Shown here in pieces: positions 4,615 to 54,884 of a stretch of DNA of 64,000 nucleotides; positions within the stretch are counted from its first letter, which is position 1, and each line of letters begins with the position of its first letter. Position numbers and translations under genes: made by a program. The notes beneath the pieces were generated by a model. It was not told the DNA's origin and ran no database searches. It saw only the letters and a list, made by a program, of their open reading frames with translations. Source of the DNA: Vicinamibacteria bacterium (GTDB taxonomy: Bacteria; Acidobacteriota; Vicinamibacteria; Vicinamibacterales; JAENWD01); NCBI GenBank assembly GCA_963719755.1, contig CAVRDA010000021.1:431403-495402 (forward strand), given 5' to 3'.

Positions 4615-5826
4615 ATGAGCGACCGAGCGCCCCTTCGACTCCGGGACCGTCCTGTAATCCTCGTCTGCGCGCTCGCCCTGGTGGCGCTGGGCGCCGCGCC
4701 GACCGCACAACAGTCTGCCGGACAGCAGCCCGCTTCAGACGTCGTCCGCCCCTCCGACCAGCCCGTCTTCCGCCTCAGCGTCTCGCTGGTGCAGCTCGAC
4801 GCCGTCGTCACCGACAAGCACGGGCGACACGTGACGACGCTGGGACCGGACGACTTCGACGTGCGTCAGGACGGCCGACCGCAGCCAATCGTCGCCGTGT
4901 CGTACGTGCAGGCGGACGAGCACTGGGTGGACACCTCGGGCCTGCCGCCGCTGCCGGTCGAAGCGTTGAAGCCGGAAGACGCTCGGCGCGTCGTCGTCGT
5001 GGTGGTCGACGACCTGCGCATGTCGTTCAGCAGCATCTACCACGCCCGGCGCGGCCTGACCCGATTCTTCGAGCGCGAGTTCCAGTCCGGCGACATGGGG
5101 ATGATCGTCACCACCAGCGGCGCCGGCACCAGCCGTCTGACCTACAGCCCGCTGGTCCTCAAGGCCGACGCCAGCCGGCTCCGCTTCTCCCTCCAGAGCC
5201 TGGATCGGCCCGATGTGCTCAACGCATTCAACGGGTTCCTGAGCCCGACGATGGACGAGTACTACAACCGCACGTTCGCCGAGAGCTCCATCGGGCGCAT
5301 CGTCGACGCGATTGACGCGGTCCGGAAACTCCCCGGCCGCAAGTCGGTCGTGCTGGTGTCGGAAGGGTTCGAAGTCTACGGTCTCAGCAGCGACAACGCG
5401 TACATCCGCGAGATGCTGCAGCGGCTGGTGGACCGGTCCAACCGAGCCGGCGTCGTCATCTACGCGCTGGATCCTCGAGGCCTCGTCATCACGGGCCCGA
5501 CGGCGGCCGATGCCATGGACTCCGCGCGGCAGGCGACTGCGCTGGCCGTGATGCGCTCCGACGCGCTTCGCAACACGCAGGACGGCCTGCGCTACGTCGC
5601 CGGCGAGACCGGCGGCTTCGCCGTCGTGAACAGCAACGATCTGACTGGCGGCTTCAAGCGCATCATGGCCGACCAGAGCGGCTACTACCTGATCGGCTAT
5701 CAGCCGGAAGCCGGAACGCTCCACGCGAAGAGCGACGTCGAGTTCCGCAAGGTCAAGATCAAGGTGAAGGTGAAGGGCCTCAAGCTCCGCACGCGCTCGG
5801 GCTTCTACGGGAGCGCGACCGAGTAG
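4615..5826 (+). CDS. VWFA-related acidobacterial-domain protein (secreted)
   Basis: Intact 403-aa ORF with a signal peptide. The N-terminal FRLSVSLVQLDAVVTDKHGRHV..DFDVRQDG module and the VWA-like core are typical of the TIGR03436-type family. Confidence 0.8.
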   Translation: MSDRAPLRLRDRPVILVCALALVALGAAPTAQQSAGQQPASDVVRPSDQPVFRLSVSLVQLDAVVTDKHGRHVTTLGPDDFDVRQDGRPQPIVAVSYVQADEHWVDTSGLPPLPVEALKPEDARRVVVVVVDDLRMSFSSIYHARRGLTRFFEREFQSGDMGMIVTTSGAGTSRLTYSPLVLKADASRLRFSLQSLDRPDVLNAFNGFLSPTMDEYYNRTFAESSIGRIVDAIDAVRKLPGRKSVVLVSEGFEVYGLSSDNAYIREMLQRLVDRSNRAGVVIYALDPRGLVITGPTAADAMDSARQATALAVMRSDALRNTQDGLRYVAGETGGFAVVNSNDLTGGFKRIMADQSGYYLIGYQPEAGTLHAKSDVEFRKVKIKVKVKGLKLRTRSGFYGSATE

Positions 5827-5828
5827 AC

Positions 5829-5864
5829 GGCCTTCGGCGTTCAGCCTTCAGCCTTCAGACGGCC
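5829..5864. repeat. heptamer ladder GCCTTCG GCGTTCA GCCTTCA GCCTTCA GACGGCC between two convergent stop codons
   Basis: Read directly. The plus-gene stop is TAG 5824-5826. The minus-gene stop (5855-5857) lies inside the last GCCTTCA unit. Confidence 0.75.
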
Positions 5865-6336
5865 ACGGTCTTCACGGCACCCGCACGCGTCGCGGCTTCC
5901 ACCTCCACCAGCCGTCCGGACGTGACCTCGTACAGATACCCGTAGATCGGAATCGTCGCCGGCACCAGCGGATGCTGCCGGATCCGCGTCACGTCGTCGG
6001 CCACCGCGCCCGCCTGGTCCGCGATCGTGTGCCACTCGATGTCGTCGCCCGCGATCGATCCGGGACCCGTGCCGACATCCTTGAAGCCTTCCGCGGTGAG
6101 CTCCGCCGTCTCGAGGCTGTTGCGCAGCAGGACCCGGATGACGTCGTTGGTGAAGAACTCCATGCCGCAGTTGGTGTGGTGGACGACGAACCATTCGCGG
6201 GTCCCGAGCAGCTTGTATGAGATCACCAGCGATCGGATCGCGTCGTCGGTGGCCCGGCCGCCGGCGTTGACGGATCACATGCGCGTCGCCCTCGCAGGAA
6301 CGGCCTGCGGCTAGTCGTTGCTGTTGGCGCTGCCAT
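5855..6336 (-). pseudogene. beta-class carbonic anhydrase-like gene, N-terminally truncated and frame-broken
   Basis: EGDAHVIR / [36 protein letters not shown] matches the beta-CA core. There is no room for the N-terminal CxDxR zinc-ligand motif before the upstream gene stop at 6311. An extra C near 6275 shifts the frame. Confidence 0.5.
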
Positions 6337-7235
6337 GACCGGCGTACTTCCGCTCGCCGGCGGTGACGGCGATCGGAAGTCTGTTCTGCCGCGGCGGCAG
6401 CGGGCATGTCGTGTGCGGGTTGTAGGCACACGGCGGGTTGTAGGCACGGTTGAAGTCGACGACGACTGCGCCGGACGCATCTGGGGGATCGGTGTAGAGG
6501 AAGCGGATGCGGTAAGTGAGATCGCCTGCCGTCCGATCGCTGAAGATCAGCCACAGCCGCCCGCGCGCCGCTTTCAGCGCTACGAGCCTGACCACCGTGC
6601 CGTTCACGGCAGCCTCGACCTCGCCGGGGCTCTGCATCGTCTCGACGTCGCCGAGGATGTTCTGGATCTCGACGTTGCGCGGTGTGTCGTATGGCACCAG
6701 CCGCCCGGCGATGCGCCACTTCGGGTCGACGGCAAACCAGCGCAGGCCGGTGAATCCGCGGCGGTAGGGGCTCTCGGGATCGCGCAGGCGGACGCCAAGC
6801 CGCCCGCCGCTCGGGTGGAGCTGCAGCGTGATTCGGCCGATCGTCAGCCGATCGGCCGGCGTGTCTGCGGCTGCGTTCGACGGCAGCGAGCGTGACCGGC
6901 CCGCCGACGGCGCGCCCGTTGAGAGAAGTCGCCACACCTGCCGCAGGCTCGAATCGCACGCGGCCGCCCGCGTAGATCATTCGTCCGGCTGCCGCCGGCG
7001 CGGCCTCGTCTGGCAGCACGACGTCCGCCCGGGAATCTGCGCCGACGGTGTTCACGCCGTCGTGCAGGAAGTAGAGCCCGGCAACCGACAGCCAGCCGTC
7101 CTCCTTCTTGAGGTCTGCCTCGCGCGTCTCTCGCCAGCGCTCGACCTCGGCAGCCCAATCCGCGGGCGGTGAATCAGGCAGCGCCGACGTCAGGGCGGAC
7201 AGGAGCAGAGAGAGCAGTGCAAACGTAGGCAACAT
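6311..7235 (-). CDS. DUF1684 domain protein; frame broken near 6895
   Basis: The signal peptide MLPTFALLSLLLSA and the WLSVAGLYFL part (from ATG 7235) are in a different frame from ORF 6311..6937 (RWFAVDPKWRIAGRL, NRAYNPPCAYNPHTTCPLPP). Confidence 0.75.
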
Positions 7236-10543: not shown

Positions 10544-10594
10544 GGGGACAGGGTACCGCAGGGCGCGGGAACGAGGAGCGTGGGAGCGGGAGCA

Positions 10595-12065
10595 GTGTCA
10601 CTGTTTGCGACGAAGTCGATCGACATGTTGAAGGCCGAGGCTGGCGCGCGGCGGTCTTCGCCGGGTGCTGGGCAGGACGGATCTCGTCCTGCTGGGTGTG
10701 GGCGCGGTAATCGGCGCCGGCATCTTCGTGCTCACGGGCCAGGCTGCGGCGGCCAACGCGGGGCCGGCCATTGTCCTTTCCATGCTGCTCGCGGGCCTCG
10801 TCTCGGCGCTGGCCGGGCTCTGCTACGCGGAGTTCGCTTCCACGGTGCCGGTGTCGGGCTCGGCCTACACGTACACCTACGCCACGCTCGGCGAGCTGGT
10901 GGCGTGGATGATCGGCTGGGACCTCGTCCTGGAGTACGCGCTCGGCGCGGCGACCGTGGCGGTGAGCTGGTCCGGGCACTTCGTCGGCTTCGCGCAGCAG
11001 CTGGGCATCCACCTGCCGCCGACCCTGAGCGCGGCGCCCGGCACGCTGGTCGCCGTCGCCGGGGGCGACCCGGTGACCGCGGTCTTCAACCTGCCGGCGG
11101 TGGTGATTACGGCGCTGGTGACAGCACTGCTGGTGGTCGGCATCAGGGAATCGGCCGCCTTCAACGCCGCGATGGTCGTGGTCAAGGTCGGCGTCGTCGC
11201 CATCGTCATCGCCGTGGGCGTGTTCTTCATCGCTCCGGGCAACCTGCACCCGTTCATCCCCGAGAACACCGGCACCTTCGGCGAGTACGGCTGGAGCGGC
11301 ATCGTCCGCGGGGCGGCGGTCATCTTCTTCTCGTTCATCGGCTTCGATGCCGTGTCCACGGCTGCGCAGGAAGCGCGGGCGCCGCAGCGCGACATGCCGG
11401 TGGGCATCCTCGGCTCGCTCGCAATCTGCACGACGCTCTACATGCTGGTGTCATTCGTGATGGTCGGCATGGTGCCCTTCAAGACGATGCTCGGAAGCCC
11501 GGCGCCGATGATCGTCGCGCTCGACGCCGTGCTCGGCCGCGCCGAGGTCGGCTGGACGACCCTGCTCGCGATCGTGAAGGTGCTGGTGGAGATCGGCGCG
11601 CTCGCCGGGCTGACGTCCGTGATGCTCGTGATGATGCTCGCGCAGCCGCGCATCTTCCATTCGATGGCAAAGGACGGACTGCTGCCGGCGTTCGCCGCGC
11701 GCATTCACCCGCGCTGGGGCACGCCGGCGACGATGACCGTCGTCACGGGTGTCGCGGTCGCCCTGGCGGCAGGATTCACGCCGGTCTCCGTGCTCGGGCA
11801 GCTCGTGAGCATCGGGACGCTCTTCGCGTTCGTCGTCGTCGCCATTGGGGTGCTCTTCCTTCGCGCGCGGCGGCCCGATCTCGAGCGTCCCTTCCGCACC
11901 CCGTGGGTGCCCTTCCTGCCCGTGTTGTCCGTGATTGTCAGCTCGATCCTGATGGTCAGCCTGCCGTGGGCGACGTGGGAGCGGCTGCTGATCTGGATGG
12001 CGATCGGCACGGTCATCTACGCCGCGTACGGCTACCGCAACAGCGTGCTGAGGCGGCAGGCGTGA
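10595..12065 (+). CDS. APC-family amino acid permease; frame broken near 10640
   Basis: The N-terminus VSLFATKSIDMLKAEAG (GTG 10595) joins ORF 10665..12065 (GVGAVIGAGIFVLTG, 12 TM-like segments). Confidence 0.8.
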
Positions 12066-19162: not shown

Positions 19163-19284
19163 GTGTCCATGCTGGGTGCTGGGTGCTGGGTGCTGCGTGC
19201 GGTGCTGAGTGCCGAGTGCCGAGTGCTGAGTGAGTGCTGAGTTTGCGTGCCCTGGCACGTAGCACGCAGCACGCAGCACTCACT
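19163..19284. repeat. heptamer-ladder palindrome, GTGCTGA dialect (about 12 units left arm, 4 units right arm)
   Basis: ATGCTGG GTGCTGG GTGCTGG GTGCTGC GTGCG GTGCTGA GTGCCGA GTGCCGA GTGCTGA GTGA GTGCTGA GTTTGC GTGCC ctg GGCAC GTAGCAC GCAGCAC GCAGCAC TCAC. It lies between the glgP stop (19153) and the TetR stop (19280). Confidence 0.85.
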
Positions 19285-28431: not shown

Positions 28432-28500
28432 CCCCCGCGAGCGAAAGCGCGAGCGCCCCCCGCGGCGAGCGCCGCGTGAGGGAGCGCGAGGCGCCCCCCG

Positions 28501-35631: not shown

Positions 35632-36228
35632 ATGACGACCACCGCTGATTTCTTCATCAACCGGGTACTGGACGCGATGCCTTCGTCGACGCCGCGGCGT
35701 CAGCAGATTGCGCTGGAGCTGCGCGGCCACATCGAGGAGCGCCTGGCCGCCGGCCTGCCGCTCGACGAGGTCCTGCACCAGTTGGGCGATCCGCGGTCGC
35801 TGGCCGAGTCGTACCTGTCGGCCGTCCCGCTGGTGGCCGGGTCTTTCTGGGCGCGCGCCGTGGCGCGCGTCGTCGACTACGCCGTATCGGTCGCCGTAGT
35901 GGCGCCGTTCGGGGTCGCAGTCTGGCTGACGAGCGACTCGAAGCTCTTTCCCCTCTGGCTCTTCGCGTACATCTTCACCGCCAGCCTGATGATCGCCGCG
36001 TATCCAATCGTCGCCGAATATCGGTACGGCAAGACCTGGGGCAAGCACCTGATGGGCCTGCGCGTCGTCCGCGAATCGGGCGCGAGGATCAGCCTCGGGC
36101 AGTCGATCGTCCGGCAGCTGCCGGTGTTCCTGCAGGTGATCTGGATCGACGCGCTGTTCGCGCTCTTCACCGACAAGAGCCAGCGCGCGTTCGAGCTGCT
36201 GTCGAAAACGCGGGTGGTGAGGGTGTAG
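35632..36228 (+). CDS. PadR-associated membrane protein with a C-terminal RDD domain
   Basis: Intact 198-aa ORF. N-terminal cytoplasmic helix region (IALELRGHIEERLAAG), then RDD-type TM segments (YRYGKTWGKHLMGLRVV). Confidence 0.65.
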   Translation: MTTTADFFINRVLDAMPSSTPRRQQIALELRGHIEERLAAGLPLDEVLHQLGDPRSLAESYLSAVPLVAGSFWARAVARVVDYAVSVAVVAPFGVAVWLTSDSKLFPLWLFAYIFTASLMIAAYPIVAEYRYGKTWGKHLMGLRVVRESGARISLGQSIVRQLPVFLQVIWIDALFALFTDKSQRAFELLSKTRVVRV

Positions 36229-36342
36229 GGTTGTGGGGTTGTAGGGTTGTAGGGTTGTAGGGTTGTAGGTTGTAGGGTTGTAAGGTCGTCAGGGCGCGAA
36301 ATCCACGCCCCTACAACCCCACAACCCAACAACCCACGACCC
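36222..36342. repeat. heptamer/octamer-ladder palindrome, GGGTTGTA dialect, G-quadruplex-capable on both strands
   Basis: GGGTTGT GGGGTTGTA (GGGTTGTA)x3 GGTTGTA GGGTTGTA AGG...GGGCG cgaaatcca CGCCC CTACAACCCC ACAACCC AACAACCC ACGACCC. It lies between TAG 36226-36228 and the minus-gene stop at 36343. Confidence 0.85.
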
Positions 36343-38872
36343 TTATTCGTACCGCAGCGCCATGATCGGGTTGATCTGGCTGGCGCGGCGCGCCGGGATC
36401 AAGCCGGCCGCGGTCGAGACCAGCGTCAGGAGCACGACCGTCGCGATGGCGATGCCCGGATCGTGGGCCTCGATGCCGTAGAGCTGAGACGCGACGTAGC
36501 GGCCAAGTCCCAGGGCAGCCGGGATACCGACTGCGAGGCCGATGACCAGCAGCAGCAGCACCTCCCGCATCACCATCCAGGTCAACTGCGACGGCTGCGC
36601 GCCGAGCGCGAGGCGGATCCCAAGCTCCTTCCGGCGCCGCGCGACGACGAACGCCATCACGCCATAGAGGCCAATCGACGCCAGCAGCGTCGCCAGCAGG
36701 CCGAAGCCGGCCGACAGCAGCGCCACCAGCCGATCGCTCAGCAGCGTCTCGTCCAACTGCCCCTGCAGCGTCTTCAGGCTGTAGACGGGCATTGCCGGAT
36801 CGAGCCGGCGCACCTCGTTGCGAATGAGGCTGTAGGCGCCTGCCGACGACGTCGCAGTGCGCATGTAGATGGCGCTGCTGCCGCGGCCCCAGGCGGGAAT
36901 GAACACCTGGCGGCGGACGCCTTCGCGCGGCCCCTCGTAGAGCGAGTCGGCCACCATCCCGATGATCTCGATGTTCATCTTCGTGTCGGGCCCGTCGCCC
37001 CAGCCAAGCCGCTTGCCGATGGGGCTGGCGCCCTTGAAGAAGTGCCGCGCGAATTTCTGGTTCACGATCGCCACGCGCGATGCAGGTCAGGTTTCGTGTC
37101 GTCGAACTGGTCCCGTCCTTCCGAATCGCGGAAGTCGCGCCCCTCGAGGATGGGGATCTGCATCGTCTTGAAGTAGCCCGGCGACAGGGCGTTCATGAAC
37201 GCCTGCATGTCCTCGCCGTCGCCGGCCTTGTGACCCTCGACCGACATCGTGCTGTCCCATTCGTCGCCGCTCAGGATCGAGACAGAGGCCTGGCCCGCCG
37301 ACTTCACGCCCGGCGCCGACCGGAGGTTCTGGAGCAGGTCGCGATAGAACAGCGCGCCGCGCTCGTCGGTGTAGCCGTTCAGCGCCGGCGAGAGCTGGAA
37401 GGTCACGAGGTTGTCGAGGTCGACGCCCGGATCCGTGGTCCGCAGGTTCTGCAGGCTTCGGACGAACAGGCCGGCGCCGAAGAGCAGGAGGAAGCTGAGC
37501 GCGACTTGCGCGGTGACCAGCCCCTTGCGAAGGAACAGCGACCCGCCGGCTCCCGCGATGGAACCGACCGTGTCCTTCAGCGTCGTCCAGGGGTCGGGCC
37601 GGCTCGCGCGCAACGCCGGCAACAGGCCGAAGACGACGCCGGTCGCCAGGGTGAGAGCGAACGTGAAGCCCGAGGATCCGCAGGTCCGGCTCGGCCTGGA
37701 TCTGCAGCGGGTTGCTCTCTGACGGGATGAGCGCCAGCAGGCCGCGCGTGAGCGCGACGGCGACGAACACGCCGAGCACTCCGCCAATGGCCGAGAGCAG
37801 CAGGCTTTCGACCAGCAGCTGCCGCACCAGGCGGCCCCTGGTCGCGCCGAGCGACAGCCGGACCGCGATCTCGCGCTGGCGCATGAACCCTCGGGCGATG
37901 AGCAGGTTGGCGACGTTGGCGCAGGCGATGAGCAGCACCAGGCCGACCATGCACATCAGGACGACGAGCGCGGTGGAGAAGTCGTTGCGCAGGCTGGAAT
38001 AGCCGATGTCCGCCTTCTCGACGTGCAGCGTCCCCTTCAGGAACTGCTCCTTCGAGTAGGCAGACCAATCCTTGGCCGCCGGCAGCGTCGCTTCGTACTT
38101 CCGGATTTGCGTGAACAGGCCCTGCATCGGCGGCTGAGCGCTTTCCACGGTCTGACCCGGCTTCAGCCGCGCGAACACCTGCACCCAGCGCGAGCGCCGA
38201 TCGTCGGCCCGCATCCAGGTCCATTCGGGCAGCACCACCGGCTTCATCAGGATCGGCACGCGGATCTGCGGCGACCGCGCCGGGTCGAGGCCGTCGAATC
38301 CGGCCGCCGAGACCCCGACGATGGTCATCGGGTAGTTGTTGATCTGCACTTTCTTGCCGATGACGCCGGGGTCGCGGGCGAAGCGCGACACCCAGTAGTC
38401 GTACGAGAGGACAGCGACGGGGTGGCCGTTGTAGACCTGGTCGTCTTCCTTCGAGCTGAGCACGCGCCCGATGGCGGGCCTGACGCCCAGCATCGAGAAG
38501 TAGTTGCCCGACACCATCTCGGCATCGAGCCGCTCGGTCTGGTTGTCGACCGCAAACGACACCGAGACCAGCCGGCGGGCGATGACCTGCGAGAGCGGCG
38601 CCGCCTTCTGCTGGTAGTCCTGGTAGATGGGATACGAGTGCATCCGCGATCCCATGTTGCTGCCGTTGTGGTTGCCGCGCTGGATGAGCATCACCAGCTC
38701 TTCCGGGGCGCGCACGGGCAGCTTCCTCAGCAGGATCTGGTCGATCAGCGTGAAGATCGCCGTATTGGCGCCGATGCCGAGTCCCAGCGACAGCGTCGCG
38801 ACGATGGCAAAGAGCGGGCTGCGATCGCAGGCCGCGGAGCGCGAAGCGGAGGTCGGCCAGAAGGGAAGTCAT
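36343..38872 (-). CDS. ADOP-family duplicated MacB/FtsX-type permease (no adjacent padR); three frame breaks (near 38815, 37690, 37080)
   Basis: MTSLLADLRFALRGLRSQP..GIGANTAIF N-terminus and two FtsX-type modules (ACANVANLLIARG...; ...GIRLALGAQ...). ORFs 37577, 37087, 37062 and 36343 join here. Confidence 0.8.
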
Positions 38873-39084
38873 AGGTGTATTGGACGAAAGCCGCGCGACA
38901 GACGTTGGCTGGCCCGGCAATGGGTCGGTGGTGCCACGCTCGAAGGAACGAAGGCTGGCGCCACGGAACGAGTTCCGATCTCTCCGGCAGGGTAGTGCTA
39001 AATTTTCAGCATGTCAACCTGACGCACGCGTCAGACCCCTTGGGCCCCGCCTGTCCGGCGGGCGGGTGATAATACGGGACAGGC

Positions 39085-40351
39085 ATGTCATTCGATTCAA
39101 AGGGATCTGCCCGACGCGAGCCGCGCAGGGTCGTCGTCACGGGCGTGGGCTTGGTGTCTCCGGTCGGCATCGGCACGGAGGAGACCTGGCAGGCCGTGCT
39201 TGCCGGCCGATCGGGCATCGCGCCGCATCACGTTGTTTGACGCCTCGCGCCACAACGCGCGCTTTGCCGGCGAGGTGAAGGACTTCGACCCGACGAGGTG
39301 GATCGACCGCAAGGACGTCAAGAAGTGCGGCCGCTTCATCCAGTTCGCCATTGCGGCGACGTCGATGGCGGTGGAGGCAAGCGGGCTCAAGGTCGAACCA
39401 GCGAACGCGGCCCGGGTCGGGGTGATCATCGGCAGCGGCATCGGCGGGTTCGAGGTCATCGAACGCGAGCACCGCGTCCTGCTGGAACGCGGCCCCGACC
39501 GCGTCTCGCCGTTTTTCATCCTGTCGTCGATCGTGAACCTGGCTGCCGGGCAGGTGTCGGTCCGCCTGGGTGCCAAAGGACCGAACTCCGCGGTGGCCAC
39601 GGCCTGCACGACCGGGGCCCATGCCATCGGCGATGCGTACCGGCTCATCCAGGGAGGCTGGGCGGACGCGATGGTCTGCGGCGGCACCGAGGCCAGCATC
39701 ACGCCGCTCGGCATTGCCGGCTTCGCCTCGATGCGGGCGCTTTCGACGCGCAACGACGATCCGGCTCGCGCCAGCCGCCCGTGGGACCAGGATCGCGACG
39801 GCTTCGTCGTCGGGGAAGGTGCGGGCATCCTGATTCTCGAGGCCCGCGACCACGCCGAAGAACGCGGCGCCACCGTGCTCGCGGAGCTGATCGGCTACGG
39901 CATGAGCGCGGACGCGCACCACCTCACCGCGCCCCCCGAGGATGGCGACGGGGTCGGCCGCGTGATGGCGGCGACGCTCGAAGACGCCGGGCTCTCGCCC
40001 GGCGACGTGCAATACGTCAACGCGCACGCCACCTCGACGCCGCTCGGCGACAAGGCGGAAGCCACCGCGATTTGCCGTGTGTTCGGCAGCCACGCCGCAG
40101 GCATGCTCGTCAGCTCGACCAAGTCGATGACGGGCCACCTGCTCGGCGGCGCCGGCGCGCTCGAAGCTGGCCTGACCGTGCTGTCGCTCCGCGATCAGAT
40201 CGCGCCGCCGACGATCAACCTCGATCGGCAGGACGCCGACAACACGCTGGACCTCGTGCCGCACACCGCCAGGCCGCTCGCGATCACGCACGCGATGACC
40301 AACTCGTTCGGGTTCGGCGGCACCAACGCGAGTTTGATCTTCAAGCGCTGA
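39085..40351 (+). CDS. fabF: beta-ketoacyl-ACP synthase II; 1-nt insertion near 39222
   Basis: RRVVVTGVGLVSPVG N-terminus from ATG 39085, then ORF 39200..40351 with ATACTTGAH, HGTSTP-like HATSTPLGD and GFGGTNASL. Confidence 0.9.
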
Positions 40352-40354
40352 AAC

Positions 40355-40519
40355 GTGCTGCGTGCTTTGTGCACCGTGCCACGTGCGGTGCTGCGTGCTT
40401 CGTGCTTCGTGCACGTGCGTTCTCCGTGCAGTGCCCGTGCGGTGCTGCGGGCACGAAGCACCGCACGCGGCACGTGGCACCAGCACCGCACGCGCACGCA
40501 GCACCGCACGCAGCACGTG
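40355..40519. repeat. heptamer-ladder palindrome, GTGCTGC dialect (about 95-nt left arm, about 70-nt right arm) with nested perfect stems
   Basis: cgtgcggtgct (40436-40446) pairs with agcaccgcacg (40457-40467). cgtgcggtgctgcg (40382-40395) pairs with cgcagcaccgcacg (40497-40510). It lies between the fabF stop and the convergent stop at 40529. Confidence 0.9.
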
Positions 40520-40528
40520 GCGAACGCC

Positions 40529-41095
40529 TTACGTGCGCAACGCCGCCAGCGCGCCGGTCCACCGGCGCAGCTCGTCCAGCATCACGATGGCGGACTTCTC
40601 CTGGGCCGCGGTCGCCTTGAACGCGCCGGAGGCTTTGTCGATCTGCTGGCTGAACATCGGCAGCGCCACCGCTTCGACGATCGGCACGATCTTCACCGCG
40701 GCAAGCAGCGTCTTGGTCATCTGCGCCGCGCGCAAGCCGCCGGAGATGCCGCCGTAGCTCACCAGCCCCGCGGCCTTGTAGTTCCACTCGGTGTACAGGT
40801 GGTCGATCGCGTTCACCAGCGCCGGCGGCGAGCTGTAGTTGTATTCCGGCGTGACGATGGCGAATGCGTCGAGCGCCGAGATCGCGGCGCTCCATTGCCT
40901 GGTCTTCTCGCTCTCGGTACTGATGCAGCCGCGGGTGCACCGGCTCCTCGAGCAGCGGGAGCGCCCACTCCTTGAGATCGACCCTTCGACCTCGAAGCCG
41001 CCGTGCGTTCGCGCGACTTCGATGAACCAGTCGGCGACCGGCCCGCCGGCGCGGCCCTTACGGACGCTGGCGATGATGACTCCAAGACGGGGCAT
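40529..41095 (-). CDS. NADPH-dependent FMN reductase family protein; two compensating frame shifts (near 40983 and 40917)
   Basis: MPRLGVIIASVRKGR...; TPEYNYSSPPALVNAIDHLY. The segment VDLKEWALPLLEEPVHPRLHQY is readable only in another frame. SD AAGGAG upstream. Confidence 0.75.
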   Translation of the reverse strand: MPRLGVIIASVRKGRAGGPVADWFIEVARTHGGFEVEGSISRSGRSRCSRSRCTRGCISTESEKTRQWSAAISALDAFAIVTPEYNYSSPPALVNAIDHLYTEWNYKAAGLVSYGGISGGLRAAQMTKTLLAAVKIVPIVEAVALPMFSQQIDKASGAFKATAAQEKSAIVMLDELRRWTGALAALRT

Positions 41096-41114
41096 GCAGA
41101 CTCCTTCGATGCGC

Positions 41115-42605
<1,491 letters not shown>

Positions 42606-42722
42606 CTGGTCTCTCCTCGCGATTGATCGTTTGAAGAGTCTACAGGTTCGAGCCCGTACGCGCCGCCACACCTTCAGGGCGGATATCGGTTCGCTGTCAC
42701 GCTGCGCTTCGCGTGTCCTCAA

Positions 42723-42929
42723 GGGATCCGCAGATGACGCCGATTGCGCAGATTTCTTGCTGGAGATTGCTCGATCAGGTACCTCGCGGCGGCTCGGAAA
42801 CAGCGAACCCGGGCGACACCGGCCGCGAATGCGGCCGGTCGGCGAGACGGGCCGAGGCGTGCGCCGCGGGGTCGCCCGGGTTCTGGCGCCCAGGGAATCT
42901 GCGTTCATCCGCGTAATCTGCGGATCGAT
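42723..42929. repeat. about 207-bp nested inverted-repeat element (MITE-like or structured RNA), CGCAGAT dialect at both ends
   Basis: Ends: GATCCGCAGAT (42725-42735) pairs with ATCTGCGGATC (42916-42926), and CGCAGATT (42747) with AATCTGCG (42896). Inner perfect 13-bp IR GAACCCGGGCGAC (42805-42817) / GTCGCCCGGGTTC (42871-42883). Core hairpin CCGGCCGC-gaat-GCGGCCGG (42819-42838). Confidence 0.75.
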
Positions 42930-42972
42930 TCGCCGCCGCACACCGACGCAGTGCCGGAACTGAAGTTCCGGC

Positions 42973-45424
42973 CTACTCCGACCGCAGCGCCTGAATCACG
43001 TCGACCCGCGAGGCGCGCGCCGCCGGCATCAGCGACGCGACGACCGCGGCGGACACGAGCACGAGCGCCGCGCCGATGACCGGCATCATCCCGGGCAGCC
43101 GGACGTCGGTGATGTAGGCGCCGACGAGCCGCGCCAGCAAGACACCGCCCAGGACGCCAGCGACGATGCCGATGCCGGCGATGACCACGCCTTCGCCGAG
43201 GACTCGCGTCAGCAGATGGCGCGGCTCCGACCCGATCGCCAGGCGCACGCCGAACTCGCGGGTGCGCGCGCTCACCGAGAACGCCAGGACGCCGGCGACG
43301 CCGACCACGGCGATGAGCAGCGCGACGCCGGCGAAGACGCCGAACACCAGCGCGTTGAGGCGGTCGGGCGCGAGCACCTCGGCGCGCACGTCCTCGAGCG
43401 TCGCCGCCTGTTCCACGGGCTGATCGGCCGACAGGTCGCGGATGACGCGCGTGATCGGCCGCACGAGCGAGTACGGGTCGGTCCGGGTGTGCACGAACAG
43501 CCGGCCGCCGCCGATTTCCTGCTCGAATGGGTGATAGACGCTCATCGCCGGTCCAGGCACGACGTTCTCGTCGTCCACGTCGGCGACGACGCCGATGATG
43601 CGCCGCGGCCCCGTGCTGACGTCGATGAACTTCATCACCGGGTCGGTCCACATGAAGTTGCGGTTCAGCGCGTCCTGGGTGGCGAACATCCGCTGCGCCA
43701 GGCTCTGGCTGACGATGACGACCTTCTCGGCGTCGCGGCGATCCGCGTCGGTGAAGTCGCGGCCCGCGATGATCGGCACGCCGAGCGAGGCGAAGAACCC
43801 TGGCGACACCGTGCGGAAGCGCGCGCGGGGATCCTCTTCGCCGCCCGCCTTGGCGTAGCCCTCGGCGGAAAACTGGAATCCCGGTCCGAACGTGCCCGCG
43901 TCGCGCCACGGCACGACGGTGCCGACGGCCACCCGCTCCACGCCCGGCAGCTCGCCGATCCGCCGCAGGATCTCGCGATAGAAAGCGGCGGTCTGCTCCG
44001 GCGGTCGCGAGTACGACACGATCGGCACGTTGATCGCGAGGACGTTCTGCGTGTCGAAGCCGGTTGGCGCCGACTGCAGCGCCAGCAGCGTCGTCAGCAG
44101 CATCCCCGCGCCGGCGAGCAGGACGAACGACGCCGCGATCTGCGTGACCGCGAAGACGCGCAGCCGCCGGTTGGTGCCCGAGGTGAGCCGCACGCTGCCG
44201 TTCGACAGGCTGATGCCGCTCGACGCGTCGGCGTTCGGCAGCCGCGGCACGAACGCCAGCAGCACCGACGCCGTCAAAGCCAGGGCGACGCCGACCCACA
44301 GCAGCGTCGAATCCACCGTGAGGTCGAGCGCTCGCACCGAGAATCGCGAGGCGTACTGCGCCAGGATCGCGACCATCGGCCGCGCGATGAGCACGCCGAG
44401 GACGGCCCCGGCGCCGCAGAGCAGGAGGCTTTCCGCCAGCAGCGTCCGGCGCAGCGCGCCGGTGCTCGCGCCCAGCGCCGCACGCACGGCCAGCTCGCCC
44501 TCGCGCCGGACCGAGCGCGCCAGGATCAGGTTCGCGACGTTCGAGCAGGCGATGACGAACACCAGCGCCGACGCCGCCAGCAGCACGAGCAGCACGGTTC
44601 GCGCTGGCGAGATGATCTGGTCGCGGAGCCGGGTCACGTCGATAGCGAAGTTGGCGTCCTTCGGGTACGACTCGCGGTGCTGCGGCGACGATCGAGGAGT
44701 GGATCGTCCGCAGCTCGGCGCGCGCGGCCTCGATGTCCGCGCCGGGAGCCAGCCGGCCGAAGAGCTCCGTCATCCGGTGCACGCGCCCGTGCACCATCGT
44801 CGCGTCCAGGTGGTGCGGGCTGGTGACGACGTTGGAGATGATCTCGGTCTGCGACGGATATGGCACCGACGGCTCGAGGACGCCGACGATCGTCGCGGAC
44901 CGATCGCCGAGGCGGATGTTCCTGCCGATCAGGCTCGCGTCGCTGGCCAGGGTCGTGGACCAGAAGCGATGCGTCAGGACCACGGCGCCGGCGGCCTGCG
45001 CGCCGTCGTCTCTGGGGCCGAGCAGGCGGCCGAGCACCGGCTTGAGGCCCATCACGTCGAAGTACGAGCCGCCGACGACGCCGGCCCTGACGACGCGCGG
45101 CTCGCCCAGGCCCACCATCGTGAAGTCGATGGTCGAGAAGTCGCCGAAGGCCGCAAGCGTCCGGGCGCGCGAGCGCAGGTCGTTGAGCTCGGGCACCGAG
45201 AACGCGGCGTTGTCGGCGCCGATGCCGCGCGCGCTCTGGCGGATGTAGACCAGGCGGTCCTCGTCCTCGTTGACCAGCGGCCGCAGCAGCACGCCGCGGA
45301 CGACGCTGAAGATGGCCGCGTTGGCGCCGATGCCGAGCGCGAGCGTCACGATGACCGTGATGGCCAGACCCTTGACGCGGGCCAGGGACCGGAGGGCGAA
45401 GCGGAAGTCGGTCAGTATCGTCAT
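42973..45424 (-). CDS. ADOP-family duplicated MacB/FtsX-type permease (no adjacent padR); frame broken near 44680
   Basis: [40 protein letters not shown]-terminus from ATG 45424, then ORF 42973..44637. The span is 2452 nt. Confidence 0.85.
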
Positions 45425-45435
45425 ACGACTCTCAT

Positions 45436-45463
45436 TACCCGTCAACGCGGGTATTAGTACCCG
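45436..45463 (-). promoter_or_regulatory. three hexamer half-sites TACCCG-N6-CGGGTA-N4-TACCCG in the ADOP leader/promoter
   Basis: The minus strand reads CGGGTActaaTACCCGcgttgaCGGGTAatgagagtcgtATG. It could be alternative 6-bp hairpins or an operator. Confidence 0.35.
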
Positions 45464-45476
45464 AAAAATTATGTCA

Positions 45477-45670
45477 GTGCCGCGTGCTTCGTGCCATGTG
45501 CCTCGTCCGTGCTTCGTGCCTCGTGCCGCGTCCGGTGCTTCGTGCCTGGTCCCTTCGTGCAGAGCCGCCGCCCCGGGGACCGCAGCCGGCACGCGGCCCG
45601 CACCCAGCACCCGGCCCATGACACCGCACGCGGCACCGCACCCAGCACGCGGCACCAAGCACTCAGCACC
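45477..45670. repeat. heptamer-ladder palindrome, GTGCTTC dialect (about 85-nt arms) in a divergent intergenic region
   Basis: GTGCCGC GTGCTTC GTGCCAT GTGCCTC GTCC GTGCTTC GTGCCTC GTGCCGC ... then GCAC GCGGCCC GCAC CCAGCAC ... GCGGCAC CGCAC CCAGCAC GCGGCAC CAAGCAC TCAGCAC. Confidence 0.85.
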
Positions 45671-45751
45671 TGCCAGGGTGCTCCCTCTACTTGTGTTGTC
45701 GAATGGCACCCGCCCGAATCGACACCGCCAGACGCCGGTCGCAAAGATTTC

Positions 45752-45759
45752 TCTAGAAT
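45752..45759 (+). promoter_or_regulatory. TCTAGAAT -10-like element upstream of the PQQ dehydrogenase gene (with GGAGG SD downstream)
   Basis: The sequence reads gatttcTCTAGAATggcgggcGGAGGcgcacgccgggATG. Confidence 0.35.
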
Positions 45760-45782
45760 GGCGGGCGGAGGCGCACGCCGGG

Positions 45783-47748
45783 ATGCGGAGCAGCGTTCGA
45801 GTCGCGTTGGTGCTGGTGGCCCTGTCAGCGGCCAGCTCTGCTTTTGCCCAGGCGCCAGCGGCGGGCAAACGGGTCTTCGAGACGGTGTGCGCCCGTTGCC
45901 ATGGGGCCGACGGCAAGGGCGGCGACATGGGACCGCCCATCGCCCTTCGCCTGGCCAACCTCGACGACAAGCAGCTCGCGGCGCTGATCCGGGACGGCCG
46001 GCCGACCAAGGGCATGCCGCCGACGCCCCTGACGCCGGTCCGTTCGCGCGGCCTCGTCTCCCACCTCCGCGACCTCCAGCGGCGGGCCGAGTTCGTTCCG
46101 CCGAGACGGCTCGAGGCACAGCTGACCGACGGCACGGCACTCGCCGGCATCGTCCTCAACGAGGGCTACTCCGACGTGCAGGTGCGCACCGACGACAACC
46201 ACGTGCGGCTGCTCCGTCGCGACGGCGAGCGGTTCAGGCCCGTGACCTCGAGCACCGACTGGCCGACGTACAACGGCGACCCGGGCGGCAACCGGCACAC
46301 CGCGCTGACCCAGATCGACAAGCAGACGGTCGCGCGGCTGGCGCCGCGGTGGATGTATTCGCTCGACGACACCGGCTTGCTGCAGGTGACGCCAGTGGTG
46401 GTCGGCGGAATCATGTATGTGACGGCGGCCAACGAGTGCGTCGCGCTCGACGCCGGCACGGGACGCCGGATCTGGCAGTACAAGCGGCCGCGGACCAAGG
46501 GCGTGGCCGGCGGCGGCGCCAACCGCGGCGTCGCCGTGGCCGGCGATCGCGTGTTCATGGTCACCGACCACGCGCATCTCGTGGCGCTGAATCGCTTCAC
46601 CGGCGAGGTGCTCTGGGACGTCGTGATGGACGACTGGCGGAAGAACTACGCTGCCTCGTCGGCCCCGTTGGTCGCCGGAGACCTCGTGCTGTCCGGCGTC
46701 TCGGGCGGCGAGCACGGCGCGAACGGGTTCCTCGCCGCGTTCGACCAGGAGACGGGCCGCGAGGTGTGGCGCTTCTGGACGGTGCCGAAGCCTGGCGAGC
46801 CGGGCTCGGAGACGTGGGCCGGCAAGGACATCTACCACGGCGGCGCTCCCACCTGGTTCACCGGCAGCTACGACGCCGGGCTCGACACGGTGTACTGGCC
46901 GACCGGCAATCCGGCGAAGGAGTACAACGGCGACGATCGCCAGGGCGACAATCTCTACGCCAGCTGCATCCTCGCCCTCGATCGGAAGACCGGCCGGCTC
47001 AAATGGCATTACCAGTTCACGCCGCACGATCTGTGGGACTGGGACGCGACGCAGACCTCCGTCGTCGTGGACGCGGAGTGGGACGGGCAGACGCGTCCGC
47101 TGCTGCTCCACGCCAATCGCAACGGCTTCTTCTACGTGTTCGACCGGCGTGACGGGACGCGGCTCCTCACACGCCCCTTCGTGAAGAACCTGACGTGGGC
47201 CACCGGCGTCGGCGACGATGGGCGCCCGGTGAGGGTGGCGGGCCAGGAGCCGTCGCCGGAAGGCACGAAGGTCTGCCCGTCGCAGGACGGCGCGACGAAC
47301 TGGTTCTCGCCGTCGTTCAATCCGGCCACCGGCCTCTACTACGTGCAGACGTTCGAGAAGTGCAGCATCTACACGAAGCGCTCTGGGGATGTCTGGCAGC
47401 CGGGCAAGCCCTACCTCGGCGGATCGCAGCGGACCGCGCCAGAGCCCGGTGCCGCAGCGCATCCTGCGCGCCATCGACATCAGGACGGGCGCGATCACCT
47501 GGGAACTGCCGCAGCCCGGCCCGGCGTACTCCTGGGGCGGAACGCTCAGCACCGCGAGCGGCCTGGTGATCGTCGCGGAGGAAGGCGGCGCGCTGATGGC
47601 GGCCGACGCCTCCACCGGCACGCCGCTCTGGAGCTTTCAGACGAATCAGGTCTGGCGCGCGTCGCCGATGACCTACATGTTCGACGGCCGGCAGTTCATC
47701 GCCATCGCGTCCGGCAGCAACATCCTCGCGTTCGCCCTTCAGGACTGA
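45783..47748 (+). CDS. PQQ-dependent dehydrogenase with an N-terminal cytochrome c domain; frame broken near 47445
   Basis: Signal peptide, CARCHG heme motif, DWPTYNGDPGGNRHTAL and repeated propeller W-motifs. The C-terminus is in ORF 47389..47748. Confidence 0.8.
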
Positions 47749-47761
47749 ACGCGGGACCGCG

Positions 47762-48502
47762 CTAGAAATTCACGCGGACCCCGAACGAGATCGGCAGCGT
47801 CCAGCGCGAGCTCTTCGAGTTGATGTCCTCGAGACCGGTGTCCCTGAAGGCGTCGATCGTCGACAGGCCGCTGTTGTAGCGAACGCCGATCTGCCCGTTC
47901 ACGTCGACCTTGTCGGTCAAGGCGTAGAGGGCGCCGCCGCCGAAACCCAGCGTCAACGCTGCCGTGCCATCGTAGAAGTCGGTCTGGTGACGGACGACGC
48001 CGGCGTTCGGCGCGGCGAACACGGCTTGGATTTCGTCGATGATCGCGACGCCGAACGTGCCAGAGGCATACGGCCGCAGCTTCTCGCGGCGTGGCGCGAA
48101 GTAGTGGCGGTAGACGCCTTCGATGTTGAACGCGTTGTAATCATCAAAGGTCCCGACCAGCTCGGTCCCGGCCACTGTTCCGACTTCGACGACGTCCGAG
48201 CCAACTTTCTGGTAGCTGAACTGGGCGCGGATCTCGTTGATCTCGTCGATCATGTAGCCGGCGCTGAACGACCACACCACGCCGGTGCCGTAGACCTCGT
48301 CGAAAGGCTGCGGCAGCACGATGGTCGGGAGCCCGTCGAGCGTCCCGATTGCGCCGGTCAGGAAGTCGCCGCTGAGGCTCACGTCGAAGCCGACCGAGGC
48401 TTCCGCGTTCCACGAGGAGTCGTTGGTCTGGGCAAGGGCCGAAGGCGCCGCGGCGAGCCAGACGACGATGGCCGCCGCGGCGGTCCAGTACCTACCGCGC
48501 AC
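47762..48502 (-). CDS. outer-membrane beta-barrel protein
   Basis: Intact 246-aa ORF with signal peptide ...APSALAQ, alternating strands and C-terminal ...GVRVNF. Confidence 0.65.
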   Translation of the reverse strand: MRGRYWTAAAAIVVWLAAAPSALAQTNDSSWNAEASVGFDVSLSGDFLTGAIGTLDGLPTIVLPQPFDEVYGTGVVWSFSAGYMIDEINEIRAQFSYQKVGSDVVEVGTVAGTELVGTFDDYNAFNIEGVYRHYFAPRREKLRPYASGTFGVAIIDEIQAVFAAPNAGVVRHQTDFYDGTAALTLGFGGGALYALTDKVDVNGQIGVRYNSGLSTIDAFRDTGLEDINSKSSRWTLPISFGVRVNF

Positions 48503-49059
48503 CGGATGCTTCCTCGAACGACACCAGCATGGCTTCCGTCCACGTGATGTCGACCTTGTCGCCGACCTTCACCTTCTCCAGCGCCTTCTTGTCTTCCACC
48601 TTCGAGCTGTACTTCCAGCCGTTCGGGCCTTCGAAGCTGATCGATGGCGTCTTGAGGTTGATGTCGGTGATGGTCGCCGTGATCGTGCGCTGTTCGGATA
48701 CGGTGCCCGCCGGCCGCGATCCCGGGGCCTTCTCCGACTCCGGCGGCGGCGCTGTCCTGGGGCTTGTCGCCAGGCGCCTGGACGCGGAGCACGACCGTCT
48801 CGTAGTAGCGCGCCTTCAGCTTGTCGCCGACCTTGATGCTCGAGAACCGCTCGGCGGCCGTCGGCACGTACATGCGTTCGTAGGTCCCGTCAGGCTTCTT
48901 CAGCACGAGGACACGGCTTGCGGATTCGATGGCTTCGACCGTCGCCTCCACTGTCTTCACTTCGCCGGTCAACGTCTTGCTCTGCGCCGCGGCCGGGGTG
49001 CTGGTCATTGCCGCCAGCCCGGCCGCCGCAGCCAGACTCGCCAGGAACATCTGTCTCAT
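48492..49059 (-). CDS. hypothetical secreted protein with an internally duplicated domain; frame broken at about 48710-48760
   Basis: Signal peptide MRQMFLASLAAAAGLAAMTSTPAAAQ. Two similar halves end in KVGDKLKARYYE and KVGDKVDITWTE. SD GGAGGA upstream. An 11-nt overlap with the downstream OMP gene. Confidence 0.5.
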
Positions 49060-49193
49060 CGCATCCTCCAGTGATCGTTGCATCTCATTGTGGCCAGCCC
49101 AGCCTCTCGCGAACATTAGACCTTGGTCCAACGGCCGCTGAGGCTGAGTTTGCACCTGCGTCTGCCACAATGTGCGTTGCGAGAGGATAGCGC

Positions 49194-50438
49194 ATGGAGG
49201 GGTCGATGGCGCAACGGTCACGGACGGGTTCATGGCATCTGGCGATGGCGCTGGCGGCGATCGCCGTGACTGCAGCCGGCGCGCAGCAGGGCGACGAGCC
49301 GCCGCCGAAGCTCACCGCATCAGCGATTCTTCCGGCAGCCACGATCAATGGGCCGCACTACACGGTCGATCCGCCCGTCAAGGCCGAAGGGTATCTGTAC
49401 GAGTTCACGCTGACGTCCGACTTCGGGCCGTTCACCGCGAACGGCCGTTCCCAGCTTGCGACGCGCATCGAGGAGATCCGTGCCATTGCCGCGCTGCAGG
49501 ACGTGTCGAAGAGCGAGGTGTTCCTGAAGTCGGCCGGCGGCGCCATCGTCAACATCGGCAAGGGCGCGGCGAGCGCCGTCACGAACCCGACAGAGACGGC
49601 GAAGGGCATCGGCGCCGGCGTGAAGCGGTTCGGGGTGAATCTCGGACGCGCGAGCAAGCGGGCGGTCACGAGCGAAGGCGGCGCGGACACCGGCGAGTCG
49701 GGCGCGGAAAGCGCGGCGTCGACGGTGCTCGGCGTCTCGTCGGCCATGCGCCGGTGGGCGCAGAAGGTCGGCGCGGACCCGTACACCACCAACATCACGC
49801 TCCGGGAGGCGTTGAAGAGCATTGCCGAGGTAGATGCCGCGGGTTCGATCGTGACGAAGGTCGTCGTTCCCATACCGCAGGTCATCGGCGCGGTCGCGAC
49901 CGTCGGCGACCTGGTGTGGTCGAAGGACCCCGAAGAGCTGAGGAAGCTGAACGAGCAGCGTGCCGCCGGCCTCGGCGTCTCGAAGCAGTCTTCTGACGCC
50001 TTCTTCCGGAACGGCTGGTACACCCTCACGCTGCAGACCAGGTTCGTCGCCGCGCTGGACGCGGTGAAGGCGCCCGGTGCCGCCGACTACCTCGAGACGG
50101 CAACCGCCGCCGACACCGAGGGCGAAGCGCATTTCTTCGTCGAGAGCGCCGAGATGCTTCGGCTGTTCCACACGAAGCACGGTGTGGAGCGTCTGCTGCC
50201 CGATTCGCGGGCCGTCGTCGCGGCGTCGAAGGGGCGCGCCGCGCTGCTGGCGCCGCTCGACTACGTCCGGGCCACGCGGGCGTCGACGGAGGTGCTGGAA
50301 GAGATTGCCGCACGGTCCCGGAAGGAGCTTGGCGCGACGCGCCTGGAGCTGGTGCTGACCGGTCGCGCGACCGAGCGGGCAAAGAAAGAGGCGAAGGCCA
50401 TCGGCTGGACCGTCGTCGAGTCGCAGCCGGCGCGCTGA
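49194..50438 (+). CDS. hypothetical secreted protein (no family recognised)
   Basis: Intact 414-aa ORF with a signal-like N-terminus WHLAMALAAIAVTAAGAQQ. Confidence 0.55.
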   Translation: MEGSMAQRSRTGSWHLAMALAAIAVTAAGAQQGDEPPPKLTASAILPAATINGPHYTVDPPVKAEGYLYEFTLTSDFGPFTANGRSQLATRIEEIRAIAALQDVSKSEVFLKSAGGAIVNIGKGAASAVTNPTETAKGIGAGVKRFGVNLGRASKRAVTSEGGADTGESGAESAASTVLGVSSAMRRWAQKVGADPYTTNITLREALKSIAEVDAAGSIVTKVVVPIPQVIGAVATVGDLVWSKDPEELRKLNEQRAAGLGVSKQSSDAFFRNGWYTLTLQTRFVAALDAVKAPGAADYLETATAADTEGEAHFFVESAEMLRLFHTKHGVERLLPDSRAVVAASKGRAALLAPLDYVRATRASTEVLEEIAARSRKELGATRLELVLTGRATERAKKEAKAIGWTVVESQPAR

Positions 50439-54757: not shown

Positions 54758-54879
54758 TGTAGGGATTGTAGGGTTGTAGGTTGTGAGGTTGTAGGGTGGC
54801 CGTTGTAGGGTTGTGCCGTAGGTAGGGAGATACCCCAGTCCTCCCTACAACCCCACGACCCTCACAACCCCACAACCCT
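54758..54879. repeat. heptamer/octamer-ladder palindrome, GGGTTGTA dialect
   Basis: TGTAGGGAT TGTAGGGT TGTAGGT TGTGAGGT TGTAGGG..TTGTAGGGT... with core GTAGGGAG (54822-54829) pairing CTCCCTAC (54841-54848), then ACAACCCCACGACCCTCACAACCCCACAACCC. Confidence 0.85.
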
Positions 54880-54884
54880 CTTCC

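Follow-up and report, generated by a model that had tools for sequence, protein, structure and literature searches.

A GTGC heptamer-repeat palindrome at a convergent fabF/reductase junction and its variable relatives in Acidobacteriota and other bacteria

The fabF/reductase junction and the ladders of the window

In the 64,000-nt stretch of Vicinamibacteria DNA analysed here (the window), a fabF-like gene and an NADPH-dependent FMN reductase gene converge on a stop-to-stop gap of 177 nt. As the first-pass annotation had described, this gap is filled by a ladder of GTGC(N3) units on the left and (N3)GCAC units on the right, the latter being the reverse complement of the left-arm unit type. We refer to the whole palindrome as E2. 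The features of the junction are as follows.

39200-40351, plus strand: fabF-like beta-ketoacyl-ACP synthase II (PF00109, PF02801), with its TGA stop at 40349-40351
40353-40518, no strand assigned: E2, the whole GTGC ladder palindrome, 74 predicted pairs
40355-40449, plus strand: left arm of E2, 14 GTGC-cored units of the form GTGC(N3)
40451-40519, plus strand: right arm of E2, 11 GCAC-cored units of the form (N3)GCAC
40519-40528, no strand assigned: remnant GGCGAACGCC, a GCGAGCG-type repeat (compared by eye) just before the reductase stop
40529-41095, minus strand: convergent NADPH-dependent FMN reductase gene (PF03358, E 1.3e-26), with its TAA stop at 40529-40531

E2 comprises 25 units over about 165 nt, beginning 1 nt past the fabF stop and ending 10 nt short of the reductase stop. 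The GTGC cores of the left arm span 40355-40445 in runs of 10 and 4 units, and the GCAC cores of the right arm span 40451-40516. Units are mostly spaced at 7 nt, with some spacings of 5-6 nt. The core is invariant (GTGC in 14 of 14 left units, GCAC in 11 of 11 right units) and the spacer bases vary. Tandem Repeats Finder (TRF) returned a period of 7 for both arms, with 8.7 copies on the left and 9.8 on the right. The left arm is additionally built as a duplicated block of about 33 nt (TRF period 33, 2.0 copies, 87%), and the right arm contains higher-order repeats of 25 and 43 nt. An irregular 12-mer, CGTGCGGTGCTG, occurs five times in E2 and is found again in two further GTGC ladders, namely E1 of the window and E3 of the sister strain L171 (both described below). 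The two arms differ in strand composition, G minus C being +6 on the left and -9 on the right. First-order Markov simulations of the window predict 0.02 runs of at least four units; the E2 ladder is far beyond chance.

Database searches gave little further annotation of the region. Exact protein look-up returned no record for the reductase ORF or for protein P0124, and a tRNA/tmRNA search found none. No Rfam family matched within the window at gathering score, and relaxing the cutoff to E values up to 1 gave only sub-threshold chance matches to generic miRNA-precursor hairpins.

E2 is one of several ladders in the window. A density scan for GTGC ladders located E1 and E3, and TRF combined with an inverted-repeat search located two palindromes built on a different unit, GGGTTGTA.

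19170-19283, no strand assigned: E1, second GTGC ladder, asymmetric, with about 10 left and 4 right units
45477-45672, no strand assigned: E3, third GTGC ladder, 196 nt
36212-36343, no strand assigned: ladder palindrome, (GGGTTGTA)n then (TACAACCC)n, filling a convergent gap, fold z of -6.4
54758-54880, no strand assigned: second GGGTTGTA-type ladder palindrome, (GGGTTGTA)n then (TACAACCC)n, fold z of -5.6

E1 lies where a phosphorylase-like gene and a TetR gene converge. E3 separates a MacB-type permease gene (minus) from a PQQ-dehydrogenase gene (plus) in a divergent gap, an arrangement taken from gene calls on a sister contig. E2 had been called the largest GTGC ladder, which holds for the number of units but not for length, since E3 is longer.

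Several additional features of these repeats were recorded. The GGGTTGTA/TACAACCC ladders have a unit of 8 nt, and their G-rich arms have G-quadruplex potential (GGG every 8 nt). At the first of them, the TAG stop of the upstream plus-strand gene (36226-36228) falls within the first GGGTTGTA unit. One-armed arrays also occur, with (CCAACCTGA)n and (AACCCGACGT)n at 1152-1249, downstream of a plus-strand gene, and (GCCTTCA)4 at 5830-5858, read as TGAAGGC on the minus strand, where it overlaps the end of ORF 5841-7235. A sigma-70-like promoter match on the minus strand at 45468-45497 (ATGGCA, an 18-nt spacer and TG-CATAAT) lies upstream of the MacB-type permease gene, and a GTGCCAT unit of the E3 left arm supplies its -35 hexamer. 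Finally, a dispersed GC-rich family of the GCGAGCG type (CCCCGCGAGCGAAAGCG..GAGCGCC..) occupies convergent gaps at window positions 28432-28500, at 2571-2593 of the sister contig L120 and at 11267-11390 of L171.

Predicted folding of E2

As RNA, E2 is predicted to fold with -124.9 kcal/mol on the plus strand and -122.3 kcal/mol on the minus strand; as DNA, the value is -80.5 kcal/mol. Dinucleotide shuffles of E2 give approximately -99 +/- 4.4 kcal/mol, corresponding to z values of -5.8 (plus) and -5.2 (minus), and 0/200 shuffles folded as well as E2. The dominant predicted fold consists of three nested perfect stems.

40353-40365 with 40506-40518: outer stem, 13 bp, perfect
40382-40393 with 40481-40492: middle stem, formed by CGTGCGGTGCTG, 12 bp, ensemble probability of about 1
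40431-40473: inner hairpin, pairing 40431-40446 with 40457-40473 at a pair probability of 0.81 and containing a perfect 11-bp stem

Two levels of exact complementarity had been reported from the letters of the sequence, and both were reproduced: 40436-40446 is the exact reverse complement of 40457-40467, and 40382-40395 that of 40497-40510, with the same 14-mer directly repeated at 40436-40449. The outer 14-bp pairing is nonetheless predicted to have an ensemble probability of about 0, the partner being 40481-40492 instead. The suggestion of at least two mutually exclusive long hairpins is therefore correct as a description of complementarity, but energetically one fold dominates. Alternative registers, when forced, cost +17 to +34 kcal/mol and have an ensemble probability of about 0, so a structural switch between two hairpins is not supported and was rejected.

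E2 shares with intrinsic terminators a GC-rich stem-loop, and it lies directly downstream of two convergent stops. It differs in having approximately 74 pairs with many internal loops, compared with the 5-14 bp stem of a terminator, and in lacking a U/T-tract. The flanking sequence (downstream GCGAACGCCTTACG on the plus strand, GTTTCAGCGCTTGAAG on the minus strand) contains no T-run after E2 on either strand, in agreement with the first-pass annotation. E2 is not a canonical intrinsic terminator, and a terminator scan reported nothing at E2. Between positions 30001 and 50000, that scan found 4 hairpin-plus-T sites versus 8.4 expected. This lineage may rely on signals other than canonical terminators, a possibility that does not by itself show E2 to be such a signal.

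In such a lineage, E2 could be a dedicated and selected bidirectional terminator that serves fabF and the reductase gene without a U-tract. We regard this as doubtful. In its favour, E2 occupies the whole convergent gap between the two stops, its folding is equally good on either strand, hairpin-plus-T sites of the canonical kind show no enrichment, and the three largest convergent gaps of the window all contain ladders. However, five of the roughly 11 convergent junctions of the window have gaps of at most 28 nt and no hairpin, from which it follows that a hairpin is not needed at such junctions; many are too tight for any hairpin. E3 lies in a divergent promoter region, and most other ladders lie in co-directional gaps, where a strong terminator would be harmful. 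The arms are also often very unequal (10 versus 4 units in E1, 8 versus 2 in its counterpart on the sister contig L173), which argues against selection for the full hairpin.

Turnover of repeats among sister strains

Two close relatives allow a direct comparison of the junction. The fabF product is 99% identical to protein P0001, which is carried by L120, a 41-kb JGI contig that aligns to window positions 37779-50438 at approximately 97.4% identity. The second sister genome is represented by L171 and L173 (ENA ERZ25039541 contig_44731), reached via a cluster member, and E1 is covered by L172, a Logan contig. In 12.1 kb of shared coding sequence, identity is 98.0% between the window and L120, 97.7% between the window and L171, and 96.5% between L120 and L171. 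In the same DNA, 44 substitutions are private to the window, 187 to L120 and 230 to L171.

At the fabF/reductase junction, homology among the strains ends exactly at the fabF stop codon. L120 carries a 23-nt GCGAGCG-type spacer, CCCCGCGAGCGAAAGCGAGCGGC, and L171 a 124-nt spacer of GCGAGCG-type motifs; neither contains E2. Immediately before the reductase stop the window reads GGCGAACGCC, L171 reads GCGAGCGCC and L120 reads GCGAGCGGC. The first-pass annotation had implied a special bidirectional terminator here and had named absence of the element from orthologous junctions without any effect among the findings that would speak against it. E2 is absent from both orthologous junctions, and a terminator of this kind is not supported as necessary. 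The replacement spacers do fold as well (-20 and -60 kcal/mol), in keeping with a selected terminator, but the spacer in L120 is only 23 nt long. As E2 is missing at the same spot in two sister strains, it is not a required control element, and from this comparison it is probably dispensable.

The GCGAGCG-type spacer is likely the older state and the GTGC ladder a recent replacement, although with three taxa this is not firm. That the ladder is the derived state is suggested by a three-taxon midpoint argument, the private branch of the window being the shortest of the three, and by the 10-nt remnant before the reductase stop. Among metagenome contigs scanned with the reductase protein, the best relatives were 64% identical and had no synteny, and the fabF relatives L121 and L122 (83-85% identity) lack the reductase neighbour. 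None of these could serve as an outgroup, so gain was judged against loss from the three strains.

Every comparable ladder site varies between strains, whether in unit number, unit type or presence. Relative to the window, E3 is 26 nt longer in L120 and about 72 nt shorter in L171. E1, with orthologues on L172 and L173, has roughly 10/4, 7/5 and 8/2 left/right units in three strains, the last being L173. At the site of the 36.2-kb GGGTTGTA ladder, L171 has a GTTTCGTCAG/AACCCGACGT ladder instead, and a TCCCAAC/TTGGGAG ladder of L171 with a predicted fold of -98 kcal/mol corresponds in position to an unrelated 82-nt spacer of the window. In the alignment of the window with the L171 genome, all breaks fall at intergenic repeat or hairpin sites, with the exception of one 1.5-kb gene indel. 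A 1.5-kb segment of the window (10556-12058) carries one gene (ORF 10665-12065, plus), and in its place the sister genome has about 80 nt ending in TTGGGAG-type units.

The sister genome contains two other kinds of intergenic element. At 205-360 of the reverse complement of L173 lies a MITE-like insertion of 150 nt, bounded by a perfect terminal inverted repeat of 18 bp, CCTGGAAGCGTGATGCGT, and accompanied by a CTAG duplication; its site is a convergent junction orthologous to window 8508/8513, where the gap in the window is 4 nt. The other is a palindromic family whose stems are long and nearly perfect (GAGACGAGCCGTGAAGATGAGA...); it occupies two intergenic sites, L171 13705-13775 and approximately 5530-5620 of the reverse complement of L173, both of which lack it in the window.

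Presence in one strain, absence in others and sharp borders are also what would be expected if E2 were a mobile, non-autonomous element of the MITE or REP type, inserted at the junction by a RAYT-like or other transposase. Genuine MITE-like insertions exist in these genomes (the 150-nt element of L173 with its CTAG duplication), and the 12-mer CGTGCGGTGCTG is common to several ladder loci. E2 also ends in a perfect 13-bp inverted repeat, but such ends follow trivially from a palindrome. The comparison offers no empty-site allele because the sister strains carry another repeat at the junction, and the window and approximately 54 kb of sister-strain DNA contain no near-identical copy of E2. We consider mobility unlikely. 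The flanks of E2 (TGAA and GGCGAACGCC) show no visible target-site duplication, and beyond the GTGC grammar neither the termini nor the internal parts of E1, E2 and E3 are conserved. A GTAG or CGTC tag is lacking in E2. Between copies the differences amount to whole units or blocks, as in simple-sequence repeats, and a non-systematic look identified no transposase near any copy.

The strain comparison also bears on the quality of the source assembly. Relative to L120, the window has single-base indels within otherwise intact genes at 39224, 40917, 40984, 44684, 38825, 38956, 47449, 48735 and other positions, which split fabF, the reductase gene and the MacB-type permease gene into shifted ORFs; the indel at 39224 truncates the 5' end of the fabF ORF by comparison with L120. 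These are probably long-read consensus errors of the source assembly and not pseudogenes. That E2 itself is an artefact, a fold-back or collapsed repeat of a long-read assembly, strikes us as extremely improbable. Errors in a long-read consensus typically look like the many intragenic indels relative to L120 and L171, and the exact numbers of units may therefore be slightly wrong. However, the arms are imperfect, their units are typical of the family, and neither is a perfect copy of flanking DNA. Like elements are present in independent short-read assemblies (E3 in L120, E1 in L172) and in dozens of other genomes.

A wider class of inverted heptamer arrays

The pattern was sought across bacteria with a scan for five GTGC units spaced at period 7, each species being represented by one genome; it gave at least 119 loci. 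Among the 119 matches listed, 13 have a GTGC array followed within 80 nt by a GCAC array, and none has the reverse order. Eight of these 13 inverted loci are from Acidobacteriota, with Pyrinomonadaceae, Thermoanaerobaculia and a gp7 genome among them, and the unit in such loci is often GTGCTGA or GTGCTGG. A unit-agnostic search of all fetched DNA, in which TRF arrays were matched by reverse-complement unit, returned 43 inverted array pairs with many different units, nearly all at period 7, in hosts such as Planctomycetota, Chitinophagaceae, Omnitrophica, Nostoc and Calothrix. The repeat at fabF is thus not the GTGC-specific curiosity that the first-pass annotation presented but an instance of a general class of inverted short-tandem-repeat elements with many units. 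GTGCTGA is identical by rotation to GAGTGCT, and inverted arrays of this unit were seen both in heterocystous cyanobacteria, at 2164-2297 of a Nostoc locus (L076) and 1178-1360 of a Calothrix locus (L118), and in several acidobacterial classes (L045, L054, L068, L101 and L112). Literature searches on GTGCTGA repeats, heptanucleotides in Acidobacteria and Vicinamibacter repeats found no description of such elements.

The orientation of the arms follows a near-invariant rule. The G-richer arm comes first in 42/44 inverted pairs of the window and the fetched loci, and the GTGC arm comes first in all 15 GTGC-type pairs. One idea for this polarity, that of a "universal stop codon", was rejected as a general explanation. 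Stops in all three frames occur in 24/90 entering arms and 7/90 far arms, but 41/90 have none, and neither does E2. Stop codons in all frames account for only part of the polarity rule. A preference for convergent gaps is likewise weak: 8 of 30 ladder loci lie in convergent gaps, about 3 in divergent and about 19 in co-directional ones, against a background of 25 convergent (15%), 25 divergent and 116 co-directional gaps, as assigned by a crude coding-potential gene caller that mislabelled E3. The idea of a convergent-gap specialist was set aside accordingly.

The closest described class for E2 is that of intergenic heptanucleotide simple-sequence repeats, specifically the inverted-pair type, and E2 shows every testable feature of it. 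These are head-to-tail 7-nt units in at least 3-4 copies, a conserved core with a variable remainder, an intergenic position near an ORF end, a complementary second array nearby with the G-richer array first, and length polymorphism among close relatives. For the last feature, E1 and E3 vary by units or blocks and E2 is present in one strain and absent from two. The GGGAATC (GGGANTN) heptamer repeats of Xanthomonas number about 185 per genome, with 4-5 conserved core positions. About 70 of 186 are in inverted pairs "in convergent orientation", their mean distance from the upstream ORF is 28 nt, and their length and sequence vary between close species; no function was found for them (Rehm et al. 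2015, PMC4692102). As summarised in that article, a 2007 survey of simple-sequence repeats in prokaryotes found heptamers to be the over-represented long repeat unit in many bacteria, and polymerase slippage was proposed as the cause of the excess (PMC4692102).

Like E2, Xanthomonas-type repeats have a 7-nt unit with a core of about four bases, run from 2 to 20 or more units and are dispersed. They are almost always intergenic, near the upstream ORF and strongly variable between relatives, and they often consist of a G-rich array followed by its complement, with the capacity to form a stem-loop. E2 differs from them in its core, GTGC, which has no G-run and hence no G-quadruplex potential. It is also unusually large (25 units) with nested higher-order blocks, and its host is a Vicinamibacterales-like acidobacterium, a group for which no description of such repeats was found.

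Heterocystous cyanobacteria such as Calothrix and Nostoc contain short tandemly repeated heptanucleotides (STRR), which resemble E2 in being tandem heptamers in non-coding DNA; the Xanthomonas article refers to those of Calothrix (PMC4692102). Classical STRR units have sequences other than the GTGC type, and inverted pairing is reported to be uncommon for the G-rich Nostoc repeats, unlike E2. In the Nostoc and Calothrix loci matched by our scan, ACTCAGC arrays come after GAGTGCT arrays.

A second point of comparison is the REP/BIME elements of enterobacteria and pseudomonads, with proposed roles in mRNA stabilisation, transcription termination and supercoiling. Palindromic and extragenic, these elements are dispersed over transcribed gaps, frequently at 3' ends, and vary between strains; REPs consist of conserved 20-40 bp units tagged with GTAG or CGTC, and a RAYT transposase often accompanies them (Di Nocera et al. 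2013, PMC3733652). E2 is similar in being a strain-variable extragenic palindrome at 3' ends, but it is tagless, 165 nt long and made of tandem heptamers. None of GTAG, CTAC, CGTC or GACG occurs in 40352-40528, and no conserved 20-40 bp unit was found, as E1, E2 and E3 share only the unit grammar and the 12-mer. REP-mediated mRNA stabilisation and REP effects near stop codons are known.

Conservation of a four-base core alongside three variable spacer bases, as in the GGGANTN repeats of Xanthomonas, could point to the arrays as platforms for a protein or RNA-binding factor that reads GTGC/GUGC every 7 nt, or as non-B DNA, with the hairpin being secondary. One-armed and very unequal arrays would fit, as would the strict orientation of the arms noted above for both the GTGC-type and the G-richer pairs. 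We nonetheless consider this very unlikely. Many unrelated units (GGGTTGTA, TCCCAAC, GTTTCGTCAG) have the same architecture in the same genomes, which no single sequence-specific factor can account for, and no candidate protein is known.

Membership of E2 in a family is plain from the three GTGC copies of the window and from like architecture in many Acidobacteriota and other phyla. The explanation that we regard as somewhat more likely than not is that E2 is one copy of a hypervariable intergenic family of short-tandem-repeat palindromes, remodelled by slippage, tolerated, acting as a REP-like barrier and dispensable. Duplicated blocks, and differences between strains by whole units or blocks, are a signature of slipped-strand mispairing and thereby of a locally generated repeat palindrome. 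Mispairing of slipped strands, between units as well as between blocks, would both create the arrays and remodel them in place. Since an irregular sub-block is common to both arms, the arms are linked by inverted duplication or conversion and did not evolve separately; intrastrand template switching or conversion may keep them related. Whole replacement of one repeat type by another is hard to achieve by simple slippage and hints at insertion or at old alleles imported by recombination.

Persistence of the palindrome would reflect its position, as a 3'-to-3' gap may tolerate it. The transcript 3' end of either convergent gene is predicted to form a hairpin of approximately -125 kcal/mol, 1-10 nt from the stop codon. 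Such a hairpin could act as a REP/BIME-like barrier against 3' exonucleases and against read-through into the opposing gene. With its base within the ribosome footprint of both stops, it may also dampen translation termination at both stop codons. By analogy with REP/BIME elements, E2 probably has a barrier role at the 3' ends of both mRNAs.

A bolder proposal would extend function to the class. Inverted short-tandem-repeat palindromes could be a functional cross-phylum class with fixed polarity, serving as U-tract-free transcription insulators in terminator-poor lineages such as Vicinamibacterales. With this polarity, the G-rich arm would be met first by polymerase arriving from either side. 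RNA polymerase might then stall through an R-loop-prone G-rich non-template arm together with the hairpin, or the C-rich arm might be hidden from Rho inside operons. We put this forward as a speculation that is quite unlikely to be correct. If true, the rapid replacement of repeats between strains would reflect an active generating or targeting mechanism and not passive slippage.

Taken alone, E2 matters little, being probably dispensable and of a class already described elsewhere in bacteria. The interest lies in the behaviour of the class, that is, its period of 7, its near-invariant polarity and the wholesale replacement of repeat types at 2-3% divergence. E2 extends the heptamer-repeat class to Acidobacteriota, an abundant and hard-to-study soil phylum. 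It also provides a natural comparison, in which one fabF/reductase junction carries a 165-nt ladder, 124-nt repeats or 23-nt repeats in three strains that are 96.5-98% identical, a set usable for testing hairpin effects on mRNA ends and expression. Together, the strict placing of the G-richer arm first, the prevalence of period 7 across phyla and the turnover at every comparable ladder site suggest a mechanistic cause, worth testing, for the long-unexplained heptamer excess of bacteria.
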